Under the pieces are notes generated by a model, which saw nothing but the letters and a program-made list of their open reading frames with translations, ran no database searches and was not told the origin of the DNA. This document shows, one piece after another, positions 2,501-61,414 of a stretch of 64,000 nt of DNA (position 1 is the first letter of the stretch; every line of letters starts with the position of its first letter). Both the position numbers and the translations under genes were made by a program. Source of the stretch: Candidatus Parcubacteria bacterium (GTDB lineage: Bacteria > Patescibacteriota > Minisyncoccia > Phycocordibacterales > JAKAEA01); assembly GCA_019661945.1 (NCBI GenBank), contig JAIFWI010000003.1:1126-65125 (forward strand), given 5' to 3'.

Positions 2501-4195
2501 ATGAATCGTAAAAATATTGCAGTCTGGGTAAGTCTTGCCGCTCTTATCATTGTTCACCTGATTCTTCTTTCAAAAACATTTTATATTGACCCGGATGGCA
2601 GCATTCGTACAGCAGGCGCCGGGTATGGCGATATCCCATACCATTTAACTGAGATTACTAAATTTGCATTCTCTCCTTTTGATTTAAATGAGCCTATTTT
2701 TTACGGCACGAAACTACATTATCCATTTGTTATAAATTTAATCAGCGGTCTATTGTTGGGGCTGACTGGTTTATGGACGTTTTCAGTTATGGCTCCTGCA
2801 TATCTTTGTGCCATTGCCAGTGTCTTTTTGATATTTTTTATCTTCAAAAGATGTTTTAACCATCGTGGTTGGGCTATAGCTGCCATAATGATGTTTTATC
2901 TAGGAGGAGGGATGTCGGGAACAACATATATCATAGAAAACACATTTTATAAAAAAGATCCACCGAGAAGCTCAGAGACGATTCTTCTCGGTGCAAAATA
3001 TCCCGAACAAAACATTACTTATGGAGCACCACTTGTTCAGTTTTTCCTTCATCAGCGGACATTTATTATAGGTTTTTTTGCTTTTCTTTGTACGGTAAGT
3101 CTTTTCATTTTAACGTTCGAAAGAAAGCGTTGGAAATATGCTATTGCTGGAGGTGTTGCTCTTGGAATCATGCCACTTATTCATACCCATAGTTTCGTGG
3201 CAGCCTCATGTTTACTTGGATGTATTTTGCTGTATGCCATTCTAAAAAGAAATACCCTTGCCCTCAAGCAGTTTGGTTTACTTCTGGGTATTGCCGTCGT
3301 TATTGCATTACCCCAGATGGTGTATCTTTTAGGACAGAAGTCATTTTCAGAAGAAAATACCTTCAGTCTTTTCCGGCTTGGTTGGATGATATTGCCGGCA
3401 TTTGGCTCAGTTCAATTTCCTTCCGGTGTAGAACCAACGGCATTTTCTGTGGAATTTCTGAAGTTTCTATGGATGAATTTCGGTTTTTTTATACCGTTGT
3501 TTATCGCTGCTGTAATTTTAATTATCAAGCAGTATAAACAAAAAGATGCGGCAGGTGGCTATATTGTGCTATCTCTTTTTGCATCAGGCATTCTTTTTTT
3601 TGCAGCAAATATAATTCGTTTTCAGCCATGGGATTACGACAATAATAAGATTATGGCCTATGCAGTTTTTTTTGCCATACCGCCAATAATCTATACATGT
3701 AGATATTGGATAGATAAAAAGAAAATAATTGGAATCCCTATTACAATTATCTCAATTGCTATAATTGTAAGTGCCGGGATTATTGACATCACTCCGCGTC
3801 TTACAACACCATATCAAAAATTACTAGTTATTTTTAATACGTCAGATAGGGATGTGGCCGAATACATCATTGCTGCTGTTCCCGAACAGGATCTGATATT
3901 AACAGGCGACTATCATCTCAATCCTGTTGTTTCGCTTGCCGGCCGGCCGGTATTGGTAGGCTATCCTGGCTGGATTTGGACTCATGGTATAGCATATGGT
4001 GAACGGCTCGATGAAATTAAAAAATTCTATCATTCACCCAACGATAATCTCAATTTTTTGGAGAAATATCCAATTCGATATGTTATGCAGACAAATCAAA
4101 CACGGAATGATTATAAAGCCGATGTTGATTTTTTTGAGAGGACATATGAGAAGGTATATAACTCCGGTCAATACACGCTCTATAAGATTAAATAG
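2501..4195 (+). CDS. 564-aa polytopic integral membrane protein, possibly a GT-C-fold glycosyltransferase; function uncertain
   Basis: It is a long ORF with many hydrophobic segments and it sits next to the PMT pseudogene. No firm family-level motif was recognised. Confidence 0.7.
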   Translation: MNRKNIAVWVSLAALIIVHLILLSKTFYIDPDGSIRTAGAGYGDIPYHLTEITKFAFSPFDLNEPIFYGTKLHYPFVINLISGLLLGLTGLWTFSVMAPAYLCAIASVFLIFFIFKRCFNHRGWAIAAIMMFYLGGGMSGTTYIIENTFYKKDPPRSSETILLGAKYPEQNITYGAPLVQFFLHQRTFIIGFFAFLCTVSLFILTFERKRWKYAIAGGVALGIMPLIHTHSFVAASCLLGCILLYAILKRNTLALKQFGLLLGIAVVIALPQMVYLLGQKSFSEENTFSLFRLGWMILPAFGSVQFPSGVEPTAFSVEFLKFLWMNFGFFIPLFIAAVILIIKQYKQKDAAGGYIVLSLFASGILFFAANIIRFQPWDYDNNKIMAYAVFFAIPPIIYTCRYWIDKKKIIGIPITIISIAIIVSAGIIDITPRLTTPYQKLLVIFNTSDRDVAEYIIAAVPEQDLILTGDYHLNPVVSLAGRPVLVGYPGWIWTHGIAYGERLDEIKKFYHSPNDNLNFLEKYPIRYVMQTNQTRNDYKADVDFFERTYEKVYNSGQYTLYKIK

Positions 4196-4253
4196 CCTTG
4201 TTTAAATGCTGATTTTCTGGTATGTTTTCAATACATTTTATAGGATACATTAT

Positions 4254-4321
4254 GCGAGTATAGCTCAGGGAGCGGGGCAGGAGTTGCGGATCTCCTCCTG
4301 CCCCTAATAATGACGAGGTCC
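4254..4321 (+). pseudogene. truncated tRNA-Ile copy with an embedded perfect hairpin
   Basis: The copy contains the tRNA 5' half (GCGAGTATAGCTCAGG) and a partial 3' part of the anticodon arm (ATAATGACGAGGTCC). Between them sits a perfect 10-bp inverted repeat, GGGGCAGGAG..CTCCTGCCCC (4274-4304). There is no T-arm or 3' acceptor strand. The intact tRNA follows immediately. Confidence 0.6.
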
Positions 4322-4329
4322 GCACATAC

Positions 4330-4403
4330 GCGAGTATAGCTCAGGTGGTTAGAGCGCGTCACTGATAATGACGAGGTCCCAGGTTCGAGTCCTGGTACTC
4401 GCA
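4330..4403 (+). tRNA. tRNA-Ile (anticodon GAT)
   Basis: Manual cloverleaf: acceptor GCGAGTA/TACTCGC, D-arm GCTC-AGGTGGTTA-GAGC, anticodon stem CGTCA/TGACG with loop CTGATAA, and T-arm CCAGG-TTCGAGT-CCTGG. The discriminator is A and no CCA is encoded. Confidence 0.85.
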
Positions 4404-4557
4404 CCGTTGACATAATGGCCTCAAGTTGTATTATTACCTCGGAGTGTGACCGATAGTCTTTCAAGGAGGTGACCTATCACCCAATAGTCTGAGTCCGTCC
4501 AGAAAGATCGGAGCGTCCGGTCTTGCGATAAAGGAGTACGCATCTCTCGAGGATCTC

Positions 4558-4890
4558 ATGTCTAGCAGGAAGCATCTTTCCGAGGCCTCAGTGTTGTTTT
4601 CGTCGGGGACCTTTCTCAACCCGGACGTCAGGCGATGCCAGGCGCGTAACGAACCTCCGCCCAAGCGGAAGAACGTCTCGCCGGAACTCCGAAACTTCGT
4701 CAACCTCTCCGGGGATCTCGAAGGGTTGTACGGCGATGCCTCAGGGCTGCTCGGGGTCGCCTCCGGTTGCATCGGTGACTGCACCGGCAAGCGGGGCGAC
4801 GTAACTCACTACGGCGGCAGAATCGAAAACATGCCGCCGGATCGAATCGCTCGTGTCGTCTCATCAAGGGCGATGCGACAGGCAAGCTAG
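4558..4890 (+). CDS. hypothetical 110-aa protein in a GC-rich (~60%) island
   Basis: A Shine-Dalgarno site GAGGA lies 5 nt upstream of the ATG. GC3 is strongly elevated in this frame. A strong hairpin terminator follows on the same strand. The antisense ORFs share the wobble position and are less well supported. Confidence 0.35.
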   Translation: MSSRKHLSEASVLFSSGTFLNPDVRRCQARNEPPPKRKNVSPELRNFVNLSGDLEGLYGDASGLLGVASGCIGDCTGKRGDVTHYGGRIENMPPDRIARVVSSRAMRQAS

Positions 4891-4920
4891 GGGCCACATA
4901 CAAGGAGTGCTCTTCAGAAC

Positions 4921-4955
4921 GAAGCGCCGACACCACCGTCGGCGCTTCTCTCATT
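4921..4955 (+). terminator. rho-independent-type terminator hairpin (GAAGCGCCGAC-ACCACC-GTCGGCGCTTC)
   Basis: The stem is a perfect 11 bp, followed by a pyrimidine/T-rich tail. It lies at the 3' edge of the GC-rich island. Confidence 0.5.
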
Positions 4956-5025
4956 GTCATATTTGCTTTAGAGAAAAAAATCAGTATGATGGTTAAACAT
5001 ATTACTCAATAAATTAGTTATAAAC

Positions 5026-6456
5026 GTGGTTAATAAGAAAACAAAGATAGTAGCAACGATTGGTCCGGCAACACAGTCAGAAGAAAAACTGACAGAACTT
5101 TTACATGCAGGATTTAATGTCATGCGTATGAATTTTTCGCATGGTGATTTTGCCGAGCATCAGGTGAAGGTTGATAATTTGAAAAAAGCTATTAAAAAAA
5201 CCGGTATTCCAGCAGCCATCATGCAGGACTTGGCTGGACCAAAAATCCGTATTGGTGATTTTAAAAATGGTTCAATTACCTTAAAGGAAGGTCAAACATT
5301 TACCATTACTACTGATGAAGTTGAGGGGGATGAAACGCGTGTATCTGTTAATTACAAACCGCTTCCAAAAGAAGTAAAAGTGGGCGGCTTCATTATGGTC
5401 CATGATGGCCGTAAAAAATTAGAGATTACTCAGATTAACGGTAATGATGTTGTTACTAAAGTTCTTATAGGTGGCGAGATTAAAGGCCGCCGTGGTGTGA
5501 ATCTTCCTGGAGCATATCTTTCTATTTCATCACTGACTGAGAAAGATAAAAAGGATATTGAGTTTGGCATTAAAAATAATGTGGACTTTTTTGCTTTTTC
5601 ATTTGTGCGCCGACCGTCTGATGTTAAAGAATTGCGAGACATTTTAAATAAACAAAAATCAGAGGCCCTTATTATTGCAAAAATTGAAGATCAGGAAGCC
5701 ATTGAAAATATTGATAAGCTTATTGCCCTGGTTGATGGGGTCATGATTGGGCGAGGAGATTTAGCTATTGAAATTGGCGCTGAAAATATGCCTTTGGTTC
5801 AAAAAATGATTACAGCAAAATGTAATGCTGCTGGTAAGCCCGTCATCACCGCTACTCAAATTCTTGAATCAATGATAAAAAATCCGGTGCCAACTCGAGC
5901 TGAGGTTTCAGACATTGCCAATGCTATCTTTGAAGGCACTGACGCTATTATGCTTTCAGAAGAGACAACACTCGGTGATTTTCCTGTTAAAGCAGTTGAG
6001 ACCATGAGTCTTGTTTCAAAGACTGTTGAAATGGGAGACTTGTATCAGCAACATATTCTGGATATGCAGAAATTGAAGCATGAGCTTATCAGTGAGCGAG
6101 TGGCTGATGCGGTCACGAATGAAGTCGTAGACATTGCAAATGCGGTTAAAGCCAAGGCTATTGTTGCTTTCACCGATTCAGGATTTACGGCTCGAATGAT
6201 TTCTCGTTACAAACCTCTCCAGCCATTAATTGCTTTTACACCAAACGAAAAAACACACAATCAATTATTGTTAAGTTTTGGCGTTACTCCAATTCTCATT
6301 GATAAAACTACTATGCTTAACGATGTTATGAAGCACGCAAAAGATTACTGTTTGAAAAATAACATTGGCAAGAAGGGCGATAAAATAGTCCTGGCCCTTG
6401 GCATGCCTTTCGGCAAGAAAGTAGATACCAATATGCTCTTGGTGGAGACAATCTAG
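5026..6456 (+). CDS. pyk: pyruvate kinase
   Basis: The N-terminus KKTKIVATIGPA...MRMNFSHG and the motifs MVARGDLGIE-like (MIGRGDLAIEIG) match Pyk over 476 aa. The start codon is GTG. Confidence 0.9.
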   Translation: MVNKKTKIVATIGPATQSEEKLTELLHAGFNVMRMNFSHGDFAEHQVKVDNLKKAIKKTGIPAAIMQDLAGPKIRIGDFKNGSITLKEGQTFTITTDEVEGDETRVSVNYKPLPKEVKVGGFIMVHDGRKKLEITQINGNDVVTKVLIGGEIKGRRGVNLPGAYLSISSLTEKDKKDIEFGIKNNVDFFAFSFVRRPSDVKELRDILNKQKSEALIIAKIEDQEAIENIDKLIALVDGVMIGRGDLAIEIGAENMPLVQKMITAKCNAAGKPVITATQILESMIKNPVPTRAEVSDIANAIFEGTDAIMLSEETTLGDFPVKAVETMSLVSKTVEMGDLYQQHILDMQKLKHELISERVADAVTNEVVDIANAVKAKAIVAFTDSGFTARMISRYKPLQPLIAFTPNEKTHNQLLLSFGVTPILIDKTTMLNDVMKHAKDYCLKNNIGKKGDKIVLALGMPFGKKVDTNMLLVETI

Positions 6457-7071: not shown

Positions 7072-7104
7072 CTTTACTCTTATATAAAATAGCCTATAGT
7101 AAAG
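7072..7104 (+). promoter_or_regulatory. promoter-like element (TTTACT-16/17-TATAGT), copy 1 of a 33-nt direct repeat; drives tRNA-Leu
   Basis: CTTTACTCTTATATAAAATAGCCTATAGTAAAG. The tRNA begins 9 nt after the -10 box. The sequence is 31/33 identical to 9746-9778. Confidence 0.5.
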
Positions 7105-7108
7105 GCAC

Positions 7109-7190
7109 GGGCACGTGGCGGAACTGGCATACGCGTACGTCTCAGAAGCGTATCCCGCAAGGGTTGAGGGTTCGACTCCCTCCGTGCCCA
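7109..7190 (+). tRNA. tRNA-Leu (anticodon CAG), type II with long variable arm
   Basis: Manual cloverleaf: acceptor GGGCACG/CGTGCCC, 3-bp D-stem with GG in the loop, anticodon stem TACGT/GCGTA with loop CTCAGAA, variable arm CCC-GCAA-GGG, and T-arm GAGGG-TTCGACT-CCCTC. Length is 82 nt without CCA. Confidence 0.8.
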
Positions 7191-7240
7191 CTCGAGAAGG
7201 CACAATTGAGATATGGTTCATTCTAGGCTAGAATATAGTA

Positions 7241-9103: not shown

Positions 9104-9174
9104 CTCAGCATATTGACTTTTTAATAAAAAGATGTTAGTATAGAAAAAGTTTAACAAAGAAGGGAGGCCAGACA

Positions 9175-9678
9175 ATGGCCCAAGAAACGACGACCCCACC
9201 GGTACCGGTGGCAGCAGCGCCAAAGCAGGGAGCCGCGGTGCTCCTGCGCTACGGCAACGACATGCTCCTGATGCTCCGGGACGATAAGCCCGGGCTTCCG
9301 AGCGCTCTTCAGTGGTCGGTCTTCGCCGGCGGCATCGAAGAGGGCGAGACGGCCGAGATAACCATCGGTCGCGAGCTCCGCGAAGAGCTCGGCGGTCAGG
9401 TCCAGGTTGAGAGGCTCGGCAAGACGCCGGCCAATACCTGGTTCACTGCTTCGATCACTGGCCAGCATGCGGCTAACCTCAAGCGAGGAGAGGGCTGTGG
9501 TCACGGCTTCTTCTCATTCGATGCCCTTGTCTGGATGAGCAAGATCGACGGTAAATTGGGACTCGGCGGCGCGATCAAGAAGTTCATGGAGCGCGCGCCT
9601 GAGGAAATCCGGATATTCCTCCAAAGTGGCCGGAATCCCAACCTCTCGGTACTCACCGGCATCATCGTCGAGCCGTAG
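9175..9678 (+). CDS. NUDIX hydrolase (GC-rich, ~63% GC)
   Basis: The Nudix box GGIEEGETAEITIGRELREELG matches GX5EX7REUXEEXGU. A Shine-Dalgarno site GGGAGG lies 6 nt upstream. Composition is strongly atypical for this genome. Confidence 0.8.
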   Translation: MAQETTTPPVPVAAAPKQGAAVLLRYGNDMLLMLRDDKPGLPSALQWSVFAGGIEEGETAEITIGRELREELGGQVQVERLGKTPANTWFTASITGQHAANLKRGEGCGHGFFSFDALVWMSKIDGKLGLGGAIKKFMERAPEEIRIFLQSGRNPNLSVLTGIIVEP

Positions 9679-9715
9679 CGCCTGAAGTACCTTCCGTTCC
9701 TGCGACACATGTCGC

Positions 9716-9741
9716 GCAGCGTCCCACACCCGGGACGCTGC
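9716..9741 (+). terminator. intrinsic terminator (GCAGCGTCCC-ACACCC-GGGACGCTGC, then TTTACTTTACT)
   Basis: Perfect 10-bp GC-rich stem downstream of the NUDIX gene. Confidence 0.6.
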
Positions 9742-9745
9742 TTTA

Positions 9746-9778
9746 CTTTACTCTTATACAAAATGGCCTATAGTAAAG
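9746..9778 (+). promoter_or_regulatory. promoter-like element, copy 2 of the 33-nt direct repeat (TTTACT-17-TATAGT); near-leaderless start of pgeF-like gene
   Basis: CTTTACTCTTATACAAAATGGCCTATAGTAAAG. The ATG at 9783 lies 9 nt after the -10 box and has no Shine-Dalgarno site. Confidence 0.5.
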
Positions 9779-9782
9779 CCAT

Positions 9783-10577
9783 ATGCTTTTTAAGCCGTAT
9801 AAACACTTTTTACTTACCGACAGACTTCAGGTCTATATTTACGGTAAGCCCCATAATTGGAGTATGCATAATCAGAAATCATGGAAAAATGTAGCAATGC
9901 TTGCTGATACATTAAACGTGACAAAGATATATTCGCCATTTCCCGAAGAATTCAATACCCGAATTTGTCAGCAAGAAGATTTCATTGAATATGATCCCGG
10001 TATTTCAAAAACAGTTAAAATATTTCGAACACCAAAAGGTAATCCAGCAGAAGGTGCCCTTATTCCTCAAGGAGCTGCCTTTTGGACAACATCAGCTGAT
10101 TGTCCCATGATTTTAATATACGATGACAAGCAAGCGGTTGCCACACATAGCGGGCGTGATTCACTCGTTACCTATGATCCATATCAGAGTAAGATTCGAC
10201 CAAATGAAAGTGTGATTGACGGGATGATTAAGTTATTTCCGGAGTCAAAACATTCTCAACTCAAAGTATTTTTTGTTAATCGAATTGCACCAGAACATTT
10301 TGCAAATCCAATTAATGATCCCAAAAATGGAGAGCGCAATAAAAAAATTATTAATGCTGTAATTAAAAAATGGGGCAAAGAATGTATAGTCGGTAATCTA
10401 AATGAAGGACATATTTCATTAGCAACACTCATTCTTAAGCAATGCGAATTCTATGGTATCCTAAGCAAGAATATCATAGATGGTGGACTCGATACGTTTT
10501 CCGACTCACATCTTTGGAGTCACCGTCAAGGCAATATGGAGCGTAATAGAATTCTTGTAATACATCACGTAAAGTAA
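9783..10577 (+). CDS. pgeF: YfiH/PgeF-family (DUF152, laccase-domain) protein, peptidoglycan editing factor-like
   Basis: Motifs SADCPMIL, ATHSGRDSL and SHRQG...NRIL resemble the ADC..., HAGWRG and SYRR boxes. It lies immediately upstream of murD-murC. Confidence 0.55.
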   Translation: MLFKPYKHFLLTDRLQVYIYGKPHNWSMHNQKSWKNVAMLADTLNVTKIYSPFPEEFNTRICQQEDFIEYDPGISKTVKIFRTPKGNPAEGALIPQGAAFWTTSADCPMILIYDDKQAVATHSGRDSLVTYDPYQSKIRPNESVIDGMIKLFPESKHSQLKVFFVNRIAPEHFANPINDPKNGERNKKIINAVIKKWGKECIVGNLNEGHISLATLILKQCEFYGILSKNIIDGGLDTFSDSHLWSHRQGNMERNRILVIHHVK

Positions 10578-60123: not shown

Positions 60124-60705
60124 CTACTTGCAGAACATCAGAGCGATGATTTGGCGCCGCAAGATGACCTTCTCCATCATGCTGATGAACTCCTCGGGTT
60201 TGAGGTGAATGCCGTAGGTCGCGAATAGCACCTCGGGCTCCATCGTTATGGAGATCTTGGGGTCGAAGAACTCCGACGCCGAGATGCCGGACATCTCCAT
60301 GACGACGTTCGTCAATTGGCGGTTGATGTTGATCTCGACACTGCGGTCTCGATCCCATCCGGGGAAGGCCGCGGCCAGTTTGTCTTTGGCCCTGTCCCAT
60401 TTCTCCTCCATGCCGTCGTTGAAGCCGAGGCTGTAGTTCCCACCGACGGCGTCGCGGATTTTGTCGAAGAACACTTGGAGCGTCCCGCGGCACTCGCTGA
60501 TGGAGGGGACATGGAGTTCGTGCAGCTCGAGGCCGATCGCCTGTAGCTCTTGGACGTGTCGCACAATGGGGACAATGCGCCTGAACAGCTCCTCATTGTG
60601 TGCGAGGATCGCCCAGAAGTCCTTGTCAGCGCCTGCCTTCCGACCAGTGATGACCGCTTCCCAAACGACGCCCATGTCCTTGCCGAAATCGGATGATGAT
60701 GCCAT
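60124..60705 (-). CDS. hypothetical protein, GC-rich (~57%)
   Basis: A Shine-Dalgarno site AGGAGG lies 7 nt upstream of the ATG at 60705. No domain was recognised. Confidence 0.5.
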   Translation of the reverse strand: MASSSDFGKDMGVVWEAVITGRKAGADKDFWAILAHNEELFRRIVPIVRHVQELQAIGLELHELHVPSISECRGTLQVFFDKIRDAVGGNYSLGFNDGMEEKWDRAKDKLAAAFPGWDRDRSVEININRQLTNVVMEMSGISASEFFDPKISITMEPEVLFATYGIHLKPEEFISMMEKVILRRQIIALMFCK

Positions 60706-60817
60706 GAGGCACCTCCTTGAGTTGTGACACACCCCGTTGAGCAACACGCTCGTCAGGACGCACCATGGTTATCTATTTCAATTATATCACATATATCATA
60801 TAAGTCAAACGTGGTGA

Positions 60818-60846: not shown

Positions 60847-60852
60847 AGCAAC

Positions 60853-61302
60853 ACTTGCATTGGATAATTGCATTCGTTCTCGGAAGGGGACGATATGAGG
60901 AAAGTCCGAACACCGCCAATTTTGTCTGCCGTAGGCAGCTACAAAATTGAGCGTTCCGCGAAGCTTTAGCGGAGTGGAACAGGCCCCACTTCGTCAAAGA
61001 CTACGCGGGGCTCTCGATTTTGTAACCACCTGCGGTGGACAAAATCGGAGCAAGGTAGTGGGTAACGCCCATCACCACCTATATGTGGGTGGTCGAGTTG
61101 CGAACAGAAACGACCCGGTTTAGTCCGGCTGAAACGGCTAAATACTTACCCCGGTGCAAGGCCGAGCCCCGCGGAGTTCGAAAGAACGAAGTGGGGAGTG
61201 CTGCTTGAGCTTGTTGGTAACAACAGGCCTAGATAAATAATTATCTCGAGTCCAGCGCAAGCTGGACGAAGATACAGAATTCGGCTTATAGATGCAAGAC
61301 AT
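60853..61302 (+). ncRNA. rnpB: RNase P RNA (bacterial type A-like)
   Basis: Conserved blocks: GAGGAAAGTCCGAACAC (CR-I/P4 5' strand), GGGTAACGCCC, GCTGCTTGAGC (CR-V-like) and GATACAGAATTCGGCTTAT (P4 3' strand). A P3 hairpin with a GGAA loop is present. The ends are approximate. Confidence 0.75.
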
Positions 61303-61308
61303 ATCATA

Positions 61309-61333
61309 AACCGCGCCCTAAAGGCGCGGTTTA
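61309..61333 (+). terminator. intrinsic terminator after rnpB (ACCGCGCC-CTAAA-GGCGCGGT then TTTAT)
   Basis: 8-bp GC stem. Confidence 0.5.
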
Positions 61334-61414
61334 TGCGTGTGTATAAAAATTTATTGCTGAATTACTTCTCATCATCTATAATGAACTTTACATAAAAGCT
61401 TTATTATTTTTTCT

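Follow-up and report, generated by a model that had tools for sequence, protein, structure and literature searches.

tRNA genes are classical integration sites, and integration is well documented to leave partial tRNA genes behind (van der Gulik et al. 2023, PMC9897764). A related system is tRNA-dependent lysogeny, which involves a prophage with a tyrosine integrase and a common core that measures about 10 bp (Guerrero-Bustamante & Hatfull 2024, PMC10865867). The locus described here lies in a Paceibacteria (CPR) genome, within a stretch of 64,000 nucleotides (40.5% GC) that was analysed whole and is called the window below; related loci are given as L numbers. As with the att-remnant partial tRNA genes, a tRNA-identical fragment stands tens of nucleotides from the tRNA in a locus of variable content, and in one relative, L152, stacked 3’ copies with a repeated flank add to the likeness. 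Unlike those remnants, the copy in the window comprises the 5’ and central part of the tRNA, lies upstream of it and is interrupted by a hairpin with tRNA sequence on both sides; neither an integrase nor a distal repeat was seen in the window, and the arrangement is shared across a deep divergence. The likeness to tRNA-dependent lysogeny is a disrupted tRNA near an intact tRNA of the same isotype, and in L073 the intact gene lies inside the broken one. The difference is that no prophage, integrase or core repeat was seen here, and that the ‘element’ would measure some 200 nt.

In E. coli the spacers of tRNA operons yield small RNAs, for example 3’ETS-leuZ. The present locus would be similar in that normal processing would set a stable stem-loop RNA free from a tRNA leader or trailer, but to our knowledge the known external-transcribed-spacer small RNAs are not tRNA copies. 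In CPR genomes, which are highly streamlined at about 1 Mb, one would not expect non-coding debris to last. A perfect, covarying hairpin with tRNA-identical flanks, retained between genomes whose pyruvate kinases (PK) are 56-65% identical, calls for an explanation, which could lie in a function, in a mechanism of recombination acting at tRNA genes or in a mobile element of very small size. From the comparison of loci we favour, with a probability of roughly 0.55, the explanation that the window holds two separate things, a dead, old partial duplicate of tRNA-Ile and a single-gene cassette in a recombination hot spot.

The broken copy of tRNA-Ile

The functional tRNA-Ile(GAT) lies at 4330..4405 on the + strand (ARAGORN; Rfam RF00005, 72.6 bits) and matches the tRNA-Ile genes of L146 and L155 at 100% identity. 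Upstream of it, at 4254..4321 and also on the + strand, is a tRNA-Ile pseudogene interrupted by a hairpin, partially identical to the adjacent tRNA in the same order and orientation. It begins with an exact match to tRNA positions 1-16 (4254-4269), followed by GAGCG, tRNA positions 22-26 (4270-4274), a piece missing from the initial annotation of this DNA. A perfect 10-bp stem, GGGGCAGGAG/CTCCTGCCCC (4274-4283 / 4295-4304), with an 11-nt loop (4284-4294) then stands in for tRNA positions 27-32, the 5’ strand of the anticodon stem. The copy ends with TaATAATGACGAGGTCC (4305-4321), which corresponds to tRNA positions 33-50 with one mismatch, G34>A, and it has neither a T arm nor a 3’ acceptor strand. 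The initial annotation had thus placed the partial copy, its perfect hairpin and the missing T arm correctly. In tRNA order 16/16, 5/5 and 16/17 nt are matched, with a period of 76 nt, and judged by identity, order and orientation the sequence is a tRNA pseudogene or partial tandem duplicate. The covariance search that had been proposed for it did not recover a tRNA, as 4254-4321 was neither called by ARAGORN nor matched by RF00005, even at E<=10.

Exact tRNA matches of 16 nt and 15 nt at most 80 nt from the tRNA are far beyond chance, and a k=11 scan found such nearby tRNA copies at only 8 of the 39 tRNAs examined; a tRNA-Cys ‘fragment’ in L026 from the same scan was discarded, as it sits in apparent coding sequence. 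The window has eight perfect hairpins of 10 bp or more (loop 3-15), compared with 0.9 in block shuffles, and two of the eight are the hairpin of the broken copy and the one at the end of the cassette described below. No second copy of the former was found in the window.

Several other identities for this hairpin were considered and rejected. An archaeal-type intron or split tRNA does not fit, since the anticodon stem is not restored when the hairpin is taken out, and a T arm is lacking. A small peptide encoded across the module, suggested by an ATG-led frame in L073 and L152, is contradicted by a stop in the window’s frame and by translated stems that are not conserved. A CRISPR-like or omega-RNA-like guide, consisting of the hairpin and the 17-nt tRNA match, was dismissed for want of a repeat array and of any cas, tnpB or iscB gene. 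As an intrinsic terminator the hairpin (4274-4304) was not called in a scan of 4000-5200, and its tail, UAAUAAUGACG, has no U tract.

Homologous modules stand beside tRNA-Ile in L073 (1634-1685), L152 (165-216) and L155 (4710-4760), with the hairpin at the same tRNA position as in the window; the module can be written as AGAGCG, variable hairpin, CYRATMATGACGAGGTCC. A covariance model built from three modules detected no further copies in 36 loci, and later picked up the L155 module. When the window, L073 and L152 are aligned, 10/10 stem pairs are formed in all three and 6/10 have changed on both sides. This level of covariation was attained by 0/500 shuffles, and in slid registers no more than one such pair appeared, but it rests on few independent events, since the module is represented by four sequences, drawn from three lineages. 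At the corresponding tRNA position L155 carries another hairpin, of 8 bp and with a different loop, and it has G34>A in common with the window. When the window is compared with L073, the loop is conserved at 9/11 positions and the stem at 4/10. The tRNA-like flanks are 90-100% identical at a divergence where all other intergenic DNA is unalignable, and the fragments carry the acceptor sequence of their own genome, GCGAGTA in the window and L155 and GCGCGAT in L073. In L152 a decayed T arm and 3’ acceptor strand follow on from the module, proof that it originated from a tRNA gene; this locus also has three tandem copies of the tRNA 3’ part. Decayed remnants in L146 (GGAGCGGTACAGAAGT) and L099 (GCTCAGCGAGCGGGAAGT) match GGAGCGGGGCAGGAGT of the window. 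In the window and L155 the module lies on the upstream side of the tRNA, in L073 and L152 on the downstream side, and L073 has in addition a separate 5’ fragment upstream. In-register 5’ pseudo-copies are also found in other tRNA leaders, those of tRNA-Ile in L004 and tRNA-Leu in L154. No intact module was found in L142, L147, L151, L146 or L154, where it is absent or decayed.

The slot between tRNA-Ile and pyruvate kinase

The locus has the order tRNA-Ile(GAT), variable slot of small genes, PK, tRNA-Leu(CAG), and the order of tRNA-Ile, PK and tRNA-Leu is found again in L067, L070, L073, L146, L151, L154 and L155, the last two of which belong to JGI 3300072492. PK (5026..6456, + strand; Pfam PK, 2e-119; identical to P0001) is the conserved right-hand anchor of the slot, and the other neighbours of the island described below are, by Pfam, a PMT_2-like membrane protein and NUDIX. 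The PKs of the closest relatives, L142, L147 and L151, are 82-85% identical to that of the window, compared with 65% for L155 and 56% for L073; the PKs of L152 and L073 are 87% identical to each other. Across relatives the distance from tRNA-Ile to PK is 50, 167, 449, 528, 534, 575, 620, 700, 759, 812, 851, 999 or 1089 nt, and the content differs, consisting of unrelated small ORFs. The slot of L070 is nearly empty (50 nt) and in every closer relative it is occupied by other small ORFs. In blastn comparisons between loci the tRNA and PK align, while the spacers are otherwise unalignable. Read from these comparisons, the flank of tRNA-Ile is no fresh integration scar but a hot spot of recombination, long-lived because the hairpin of the broken copy is kept in distant relatives and because small genes occupy the same slot in relatives. 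The locus is also a concrete, alignable case of small-gene exchange in episymbiotic bacteria, in a slot bounded by a tRNA gene and a housekeeping gene.

In the window the slot is filled by a GC-rich island (about 4445-4960) that is a single-gene cassette of promoter, gene and hairpin. The GC-rich segment beyond the intact tRNA was already in the initial annotation, and GC content indeed exceeds 55% at 4489-4968, with a peak of 65%. A strong sigma-70-type promoter, TTGACA-16-TATTAT (4407..4434, + strand; 11/12 consensus matches), follows directly after the tRNA, and transcription would probably start near TCGGAG (4439-4444). In L004, L146 and L151, too, tRNA-Ile is followed by a conserved TTGAC(A/T) promoter and then by TCGGA(A/G); L142, L147, L148, L154 and L155 have kept the promoter without the TCGGA(A/G) part. 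Likeness to relatives ends after TCGGAG, where the predicted 5’ untranslated region begins (4445..4557, + strand). This region has a strong Shine-Dalgarno-like AAGGAGGTGA (4463-4472) with no start codon after it, and lacks the UGG(A)-loop hairpin that relatives carry there. The cassette is closed by a perfect 11-bp hairpin, GAAGCGCCGAC-6-GTCGGCGCTTC (4921..4948, + strand; loop 6), at the end of the island as first noticed. It is a probable terminator with a weak U tail. The consensus scan of 4000-5200 left it uncalled, its tail, UCUCUCAUUGUC, falling short of a U tract, but where it stands, at the cassette end as in relatives, suggests that it probably acts as a terminator; all relatives carry a GC-rich hairpin of their own there, just 5’ of the PK promoter. 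This probable promoter, TTGCTT-16-TATGAT (4963..4990, + strand), is read from the sequence and corresponds to TTGATT...TATGATG in L142, L147, L148 and L151. Because likeness to relatives restarts there, we place the right boundary of the variable cassette at about 4960.

The gene of the cassette, orf110, encodes 110 aa (4558..4890, + strand) and shows period-3 GC in its frame (GC 60.7%, GC3 0.73). The initial annotation had described it as supported by a Shine-Dalgarno sequence; the ORF itself holds, but its Shine-Dalgarno is only modest, GAGGA 4 nt before the ATG, with a better AAGGAG 21 nt upstream. Two minus-strand ORFs, 4461-4790 and 4700-4960, were rejected as high-GC artefacts, having no Pfam family and the wrong order of GC by codon position. 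No Pfam family was found for orf110 either, and a word-indexed fast protein search gave no match; its family surfaced in an exhaustive phmmer search, with 89 matches at E<=1e-3. The best full-length match, P0226 (92 aa, 54% identical), is the product of a gene between tRNA-Ile and PK in L155, and a syntenic ORF of L154 is 39% identical over 98 aa (BLASTP, E 2e-12). The protein aligns over its full length with P0226, P0235, P0258 and P0304 (33-50% identity), with the core NLxGDLxGLxGDAxGL in common; the full family motif is NLxGDLxGLxGDAxGL...G.VTGY.G.I..M, and 12 columns are invariant among six members (alignment A4). On sequence similarity this is a family of uncharacterised small proteins, related to proteins with heptad GDxSGIxG repeats. 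Most of its small members have a C-terminal motif of four cysteines. The window protein differs from the family in that all four are replaced (GDVTHY ... DRIARVVSSRAM compared with GCVTGY ... C-x4-C-x2-C), and P0254 is also without the motif. The gene may be decaying after this loss.

The codon usage of orf110 also sets it apart, since its GC3 is much above that of the host genome, 0.73 compared with 0.33 (PK) and 0.32 in the flanking genes. This difference suggests that the gene was probably imported from a GC-richer relative. The L154 orthologue has a GC3 of 0.65, in a genome whose PK has a GC3 of 0.62. The interpretation given in the initial annotation is supported in part: the flank of tRNA-Ile is a hot spot of recombination, as seen in the variable gap between tRNA-Ile and PK, the codon usage of orf110 is foreign, and tRNA fragments are abundant at the locus. 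A remnant of an integrative element, or a tRNA-targeting insertion with cargo, is not borne out, as detailed below.

Origin of the locus and competing explanations

Under the explanation that we prefer, the simplest origin of the broken copy would be a tandem duplication running from leader position -8 to tRNA position 50. The 8-nt spacer gcACATac (4322..4329, + strand), which resembles the native leader (..cACAT) directly 5’ of tRNA-Ile in L142, L147 and L151, and the 76-nt period from copy to copy both fit such a duplication. A hairpin would then have replaced the anticodon stem’s 5’ strand. Lying in the tRNA leader, the copy would be co-transcribed with the tRNA and removed by RNase P. The probable promoter of this unit is at 4198..4226 on the + strand (-35 TTGTTT 4198-4203, 17-nt spacer, -10 TATGTT 4221-4226); a consensus scan made no call there, so we infer it from conservation, the block cTTGTTT...TGGTAT(G/C/A)(T/A)T being kept at the same place in L142, L146, L147, L148, L151 and L155. 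The copy appears old because hairpin copies at the same position flank tRNA-Ile in distant relatives. One simple tandem duplication is insufficient, given that the module lies upstream or downstream of the tRNA and that L073 has its own 5’ fragment. The distribution is also patchy, since the closest relatives, L142, L147 and L151, are without the module, and horizontal movement of a unit of tRNA plus module could lie behind it. L142, L147 and L151 have a different tRNA-Ile body and the same acceptor stem as the window.

The copy would most likely have persisted through repeated recombination or gene conversion with the neighbouring tRNA, together with maintenance of the stem-loop, either by selection on the precursor RNA or by self-correction of the palindrome. 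Gene conversion is expected to erase G34>A, and the presence of this change in both the window and L155 argues against it. Quasipalindrome correction, through intrastrand template switching, would keep a short inverted repeat perfect during drift and so mimic compensatory evolution, but leaves unaccounted for the constant position of the hairpin at tRNA 27-31 and the tRNA-identical flanks. The island gene would most likely have been imported by homologous replacement, with tRNA-Ile and PK as anchors and no integrase. If this simple reading is true, the locus is an ordinary tRNA-linked hot spot and is useful mainly as a lesson in annotation, with a pseudo-tRNA, a real gene of small size and an RNase P RNA that scores below threshold.

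Another explanation, which we regard as possible though unlikely, is that the module specifies a functional RNA, either a tRNA-Ile mimic released from the leader (window, L155) or the trailer (L073, L152), or an antisense transcript in which arms complementary to tRNA-Ile 32-50 and 13-26 flank the hairpin and whose target would be the tRNA or a tRNA-binding protein. The covariation of the full stem and a loop better conserved than the stem when the window and L073 are compared are what would be expected of such an RNA, as are flanks kept at 90-100% amid unalignable intergenic DNA and the pseudo-copies in the leaders of L004 and L154. The shared G34>A likewise indicates that the flanks are not simply overwritten by gene conversion. 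However, the module is absent or decayed in five relatives (L142, L147, L151, L146, L154), its placement relative to the tRNA varies by lineage, as does the gene that lies downstream of it, and the loop and stem length differ in L155. The stability of the leader-plus-tRNA folds is ordinary (z -1.95 and -0.86), and the MFE fold suggests a leader that would compete for the 3’ acceptor strand of the tRNA. More broadly, one could tentatively speculate that the module is a conserved functional unit of Paceibacteria, whether a leader or trailer RNA, an antisense RNA or the site that a very small self-complementing element recognises and has left as its footprint, an idea to which we give little weight. 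If true, it would explain why tRNA-Ile bodies are swapped between close relatives, why L073 has an intact tRNA nested in a split pseudo-tRNA and why small genes turn over in the adjacent slot.

The classical scar, in which an element with a tyrosine integrase entered tRNA-Ile, the copy is an att remnant and the island is leftover cargo, corresponds to what the initial annotation had proposed, and appears improbable to us. In its favour, L152 has serial 3’ copies (about 41-76; 21-76 with the hairpin), each followed by the same flank, like stacked attR remnants; the tRNA likeness of the module restarts exactly at the anticodon loop; and the island has foreign codon usage and, as in genomic islands, an atypical composition (60.7% compared with 40.5% GC). 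The anticodon loop is reportedly a crossover site, as Williams is said to have set out in 2002. Against it, the 5’ copy is only 8 nt upstream of the intact gene, which leaves no room for the body of an element, and the tRNA sequence on both sides of the hairpin means that the hairpin is no junction of tRNA and foreign DNA. The duplicated 5’ part, being upstream of the tRNA, is also on the wrong side for a classical attL/attR pair. The direct repeat of the tRNA 3’ end that would be sought at the distal edge of the island is absent there and throughout the 64 kb, where searches with GTCCTGGTACTCGCACC and GAGGTCCCAGGTTCGAG (<=3 mismatches) matched the tRNA itself only; the k=11 scan at the locus gave upstream copies only. 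Nor were recombinases seen. The island ORFs had no Pfam family, hence no integrase or recombinase among them; the other 45 ORFs of the window showed none among the matches listed, which were to housekeeping and glycosyltransferase families; and no integrase was seen in related loci. In blastn searches of phage and plasmid collections with 4200-5025 only the tRNA was matched. On reading 4900-4960 we found no integron attC core sites (RYYYAAC...GTTRRRY), and no integron integrase was seen. The island is moreover hardly insertion cargo, as genes of the orf110 family reside in the same slot of L154 and L155. The same arrangement in related genomes had been named as an observation that would tell against a scar, and this is largely what we find, with the pseudo-tRNA in L155, L073 and L152.

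A mobile element that complements its own damage, breaking tRNA-Ile and bringing a ‘type A’ copy of the gene, would make the hairpin a pair of abutting terminal inverted repeats left by an internal deletion, and we consider this quite doubtful. It draws on L073, where the intact tRNA stands between inverted repeats of about 30 nt (CATTTAAA..TTAGTTGGCGGGG / CCCCGCC..CTAA..TTTAAATG) that themselves lie inside a split pseudo-tRNA, between the fragments 1-14 and 21-49. Two types of tRNA-Ile body are patchily distributed among relatives with one acceptor stem, the module occurring with type A only; abutting inverted repeats would yield ‘covariation’ without function; and an element-borne tRNA that complements a disruption has a precedent (PMC10865867). 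No transposase or integrase, target-site duplication or second copy of the hairpin was seen in the window, however, and pattern scans of viral contigs for the hairpin module and the 3’ part of tRNA-Ile gave no match. An incoming gene is also hard to square with intact tRNAs whose acceptor stems are lineage-specific. Arms of 10 bp with an 11-nt loop are far below known element sizes, and we know of no mobile element as small as this.

That the island is a structured non-coding RNA and its ORFs are high-GC artefacts, which the initial annotation had left open, is very improbable and within the tools used is refuted by the protein homology of orf110: the GC-rich block in an AT-rich genome, the strong promoter, the terminal hairpin, several internal perfect stems, a fold z-score of -2.5 and ORFs open on both strands would suit an RNA, but the opposite strand gives the same z-score, period-3 GC (GC3 > GC1 > GC2) fits orf110, the protein has homologues that include the syntenic L154 and L155 genes while the DNA does not align, and Rfam 15, searched over the whole window at the gathering score and over 4150-5050 at E<=10, gave no RNA family beyond tRNAs. 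The scores obtained were at chance level (mir-207, 16.6 bits; sar, 16.3 bits; Atu_C9, 20 bits). The window contains two further GC islands, at 9127-9781 and 60187-60781, and a sub-threshold RNase P RNA is present elsewhere in it.

The hairpin-interrupted tRNA-Ile copy

The intact tRNA-Ile(GAT) gene (4330-4405) is preceded, across a spacer of 8 nt (gcacatac), by a partial copy of itself at 4254-4321. The copy consists of tRNA positions 1-16 (4254-4269), the sequence GAGCG corresponding to positions 22-26 (4270-4274), a perfect 10-bp stem with an 11-nt loop (4274-4283 and 4295-4304) and, finally, positions 33-50 with the single change G34>A (4305-4321). It lacks the D loop (17-21), the 5' strand of the anticodon stem, the T arm and the 3' acceptor strand, and it is recognised by no tRNA model. 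The window has about nine times as many perfect hairpins of 10 bp or more as shuffled sequence (8 versus 0.9). The initial annotation described this copy, without a T arm, together with its hairpin and a GC-rich island, and on reading 3900-5300 we found every one of these elements. The T arm is indeed missing, and both the GC-rich block (4489-4968, >55% GC throughout) and the 11-bp hairpin at its end (4921-4948) are present.

The hairpin module is also present in related genomes, whose loci are given L numbers and whose relatedness is gauged by the identity of their pyruvate kinase (PK) to that of the window. The window module reads GAGC GGGGCAGGAG ttgcggatctc CTCCTGCCCC TAATAATGACGAGGTCC. In L073 (PK 56%), where the tRNA-Ile is identical outside the acceptor stem, the module GAGC GGAGAAATGC ttgcgagtctc GCATTTCTCC TGATAATGACGAGGT lies about 35 nt downstream of the tRNA. 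L152 and L153, with PKs 87% identical to that of L073, have the L073 stem with the loop tttcgaatctc, and their module runs on into decayed remains of a T arm and of a 3' acceptor strand (TCAGG TTAAAGT CTTGG ATTGCGCACC). This continuation shows that the module is a copy of the tRNA-Ile gene from position 21 onward. In L155, which has a tRNA-Ile identical to that of the window, the tRNA leader contains TAGGTGGTTAGAGCG gttc GAAAGTCC ccc GGACTTTC ttcac CTAATCATGACGAGGTCC, followed by an extra GCGAGTATAG fragment; here too the hairpin takes the place of the 5' anticodon-stem strand, and the G34>A change of the window recurs in the copy. In L146 (PK 83%) and L099 (PK 75%) the D arm and the start of the stem survive as decayed remnants. 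L142, L147 and L151, which are the closest relatives, carry no tRNA copy, and their tRNA starts about 10 nt past the -10 box. In an alignment of three sequences (window, L073 and L152) all 10 stem pairs are formed in each, with six pairs changed on both sides, a degree of covariation approached by none of 500 column shuffles and by no slid register. The tRNA fragments of each genome carry the acceptor sequence of that genome. The shared module, the covarying stem and these own-acceptor fragments together indicate that the copy is ancestral or repeatedly regenerated and not a recent scar in this genome.

In-register, block-wise 5' pseudo-copies were also seen at L154 5909-5960, 80 nt upstream of tRNA-Leu(CAG) (GGGCACGTGGC..TGGC..ATACGC..ACGTCT), and upstream of the tRNA-Ile of L004 at about 2414-2460 (ATGCGCTTGTAG..TTGGTAGA..CACTGATAC). 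Such partial copies upstream of tRNA genes may be common throughout the clade.

Origin and upkeep of the copy

The copy in the window may have been made by a tandem duplication from the leader (-8) to tRNA position 50. This fits the window because the copy-to-gene period is 76 nt and the short leaders are alike (..ACATtat before the copy, gcACATac before the gene). Tandem duplication does not account for the split arrangement of L073, where the intact tRNA is preceded by a 5' fragment (positions 1-14) and followed by the hairpin module, nor for the stacked 3' copies of L152. At L073 1426-1690 the intact tRNA-Ile is flanked by inverted repeats of about 30 nt, which lengthen its acceptor stem, with the 5' fragment and then a 42-nt GC-rich palindrome on one side and the hairpin module on the other. 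The L073 contig opens with the 3' end of a 16S rRNA gene (1-375), so in that lineage the tRNA-Ile follows the 16S gene.

Among relatives of 82-85% PK identity there are at least two types of tRNA-Ile 'body' with the same acceptor stem, a pattern that suggests recombination or conversion inside the gene. Gene conversion with the functional gene would probably also keep the flanks of the copy tRNA-like. We conclude that in this clade the tRNA-Ile gene has long served as a substrate for recombination. The acceptor stem common to the close relatives is GCGAGTA/TACTCGC, and the D-loop, anticodon-stem and T-stem sequences differ; type A occurs in the window, L146, L155, L073 and L154, type B in L142, L147, L151, L004, L099 and L068, and type C in L148.

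The hairpin itself could be explained by selection on a stem-loop in the precursor RNA, by self-correction of the palindrome through template switching, or by the abutting inverted repeats of a tiny element. We rank the first two, within a pseudogene reading, first, a functional RNA second and the footprint of a mobile element third. In the minimum free energy fold of leader plus tRNA the 5' acceptor strand of the copy pairs with the real 3' acceptor strand, so the leader could, on this prediction, compete with the tRNA during folding.

Integration is known to leave partial tRNA genes next to tRNA genes (PMC9897764), and in mycobacteriophages a disrupted tRNA is complemented by an element-borne tRNA (PMC10865867). 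The window locus has the fragments and the hot spot in common with these cases, but neither of the features that define an integrated element, an integrase and a distal repeat, was found. No recombinase is among the Pfam matches listed for the window, the tRNA 3' half has no further copy anywhere in the 64 kb, including the distal island edge where the initial annotation had advised looking for a direct repeat, and searches of phage, plasmid and viral-contig sequences matched the tRNA alone or nothing. What is duplicated is the 5' part of the tRNA, upstream of the gene, and the two copies leave no space for an element between them. Of the proposed integration scar with cargo, the hot spot and the imported gene are supported, and the remnant of an integrative element is not. 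The conserved hairpin at a fixed tRNA position is an addition to the known cases.

The gene slot between tRNA-Ile and pyruvate kinase

A near-consensus promoter (TTGACA-16-TATTAT, 11/12 matches; 4407-4434) begins 1 base past the tRNA, and the PK gene lies at 5026-6456. The PK is identical to NCBI protein P0001 ('Candidatus Parcubacteria bacterium') and shares 68-71% identity with the PKs of Candidatus Vogelbacteria and of other Patescibacteria MAGs. The order tRNA-Ile(GAT), PK, tRNA-Leu(CAG) is found again in many relatives. Among the matches listed, the remaining 45 large ORFs of the window are housekeeping and polysaccharide-synthesis genes.

The island between tRNA-Ile and PK is, judged from its composition and homologues, a protein-coding cassette and not a structured RNA. 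Its 110-aa ORF, orf110 (4558-4890, + strand), has GC1 0.58, GC2 0.51 and GC3 0.73, with a GC peak at each third base in frame. The structured RNA that the initial annotation had left open can be rejected on this periodicity and the protein homologues, together with an empty Rfam search and a fold z-score of -2.5 that is equal on both strands. A word-indexed protein search with orf110 gave no match; exhaustive phmmer gave 89 proteins at E<=1e-3, with P0226 (92 aa, 54% identity), P0235, P0254, P0258 and P0304 among the full-length small relatives. The family shares NLxGDLxGLxGDAxGL and a G.VTGY.G.I..M block, and most members have four cysteines, all replaced in orf110. No Pfam family covers these small proteins. 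Coiled-coil or adhesin-stalk-like proteins contain the heptad GDxSGIxG motif as well, there in long repeats. L001 (511-1098, - strand) and L005 (764-1384, - strand) encode proteins of 195-206 aa made almost wholly of GD(V/I)S(N/G)(I/L)x heptads, with weak similarity to the orf110 core (tblastn E ~1e-6, small database). The orf110 leader contains a very strong Shine-Dalgarno-like AAGGAGGTGA (4463-4472) with no ATG, GTG or TTG at usable distance 3' of it, where ATC ACC CAA TAG stands instead; this motif may have been left behind by a displaced start, or it may be a structural element.

P0304 (BLASTP 39% over 98 aa, E 2e-12) and P0226 are the ORFs between tRNA-Ile and PK in L154 (PK 77%) and L155 (PK ~65%), respectively; the island gene is therefore a resident of this slot and not a stranger. 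The cassette nevertheless looks imported from its codon composition, though its family is resident: GC3 is 0.73 in orf110 versus 0.33 in the flanking PK and 0.32 in the 564-aa membrane protein, and in L154 it is 0.65 in the orthologue and 0.62 in the PK. Slot genes of other AT-rich relatives are GC3-enriched too (L147, 0.79 versus 0.35; L146, 0.55 versus 0.31). DNA alignments to relatives are confined to the tRNA and PK; similarity ends just past the promoter and TCGGAG at about 4444 and returns at the PK promoter (TTGCTT-16-TATGAT, 4963-4990). The slot measures 50 to 1089 nt, differs in length in nearly every relative and contains small ORFs that are unrelated and look disordered, each with a GC-rich hairpin of its own at the end. 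The simplest route would be homologous recombination that swapped the cassette in, anchored on PK at one end and on the conserved tRNA and promoter at the other.

In eight relatives the transcript from the promoter past tRNA-Ile opens with a hairpin (L004 ~2590-2650, L142 ~1130-1180, L146 ~3610-3650, L147 ~3480-3510, L148 ~1555-1610, L151 ~1355-1400, L154 ~2830-2870 and L155 ~4920-4960), which the window lacks. The loop is UGGA (or CGGA, UGG, AUGGAC), the stems are wholly different yet paired, and in most cases the hairpin is followed by (G)UUCC(A), whose complementarity to the loop would allow a pseudoknot. The hairpin may represent a cis-regulatory motif of the leader that has not been described before.

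Other GC-rich islands of the window

The GC content of the window is 40.5%. A second GC-rich island (9127-9781) holds a single gene for a 167-aa NUDIX hydrolase (9175-9678, + strand; Pfam NUDIX 5e-10; 62% GC, GC3 0.76). This gene has its own Shine-Dalgarno sequence AAGGGAGG, is closed by a perfect 10-bp hairpin (9716-9741) and appears, like orf110, to be a lone gene imported from a GC-rich donor. A 36-nt direct repeat (92% identity) lies in the promoter region immediately 5' of tRNA-Leu(CAG) (7072-7107; tRNA 7109-7191) and just past this island (9746-9781), directly 5' of the ATG of a PgeF/Cu-oxidase_4-like ORF (9783-10577). The repeats flank a 2.67-kb block (tRNA-Leu, orf217, orf401 and NUDIX), and relatives lack the block between tRNA-Leu and the Mur ligase genes. 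A third island (60124-60781, - strand), between gatB and the RNase P RNA gene, has a 193-aa ORF (start 60705, SD AAGGAGGTG, GC3 0.81) that matches no Pfam family. The RNase P RNA is a divergent bacterial class A molecule of 453 nt (60852-61304, + strand) containing GAGGAAAGUCCG; it was missed by the default Rfam scan because its 75.9 bits fall below the gathering score of 100, and it is followed by a perfect 13-bp terminator hairpin (61305-61335).
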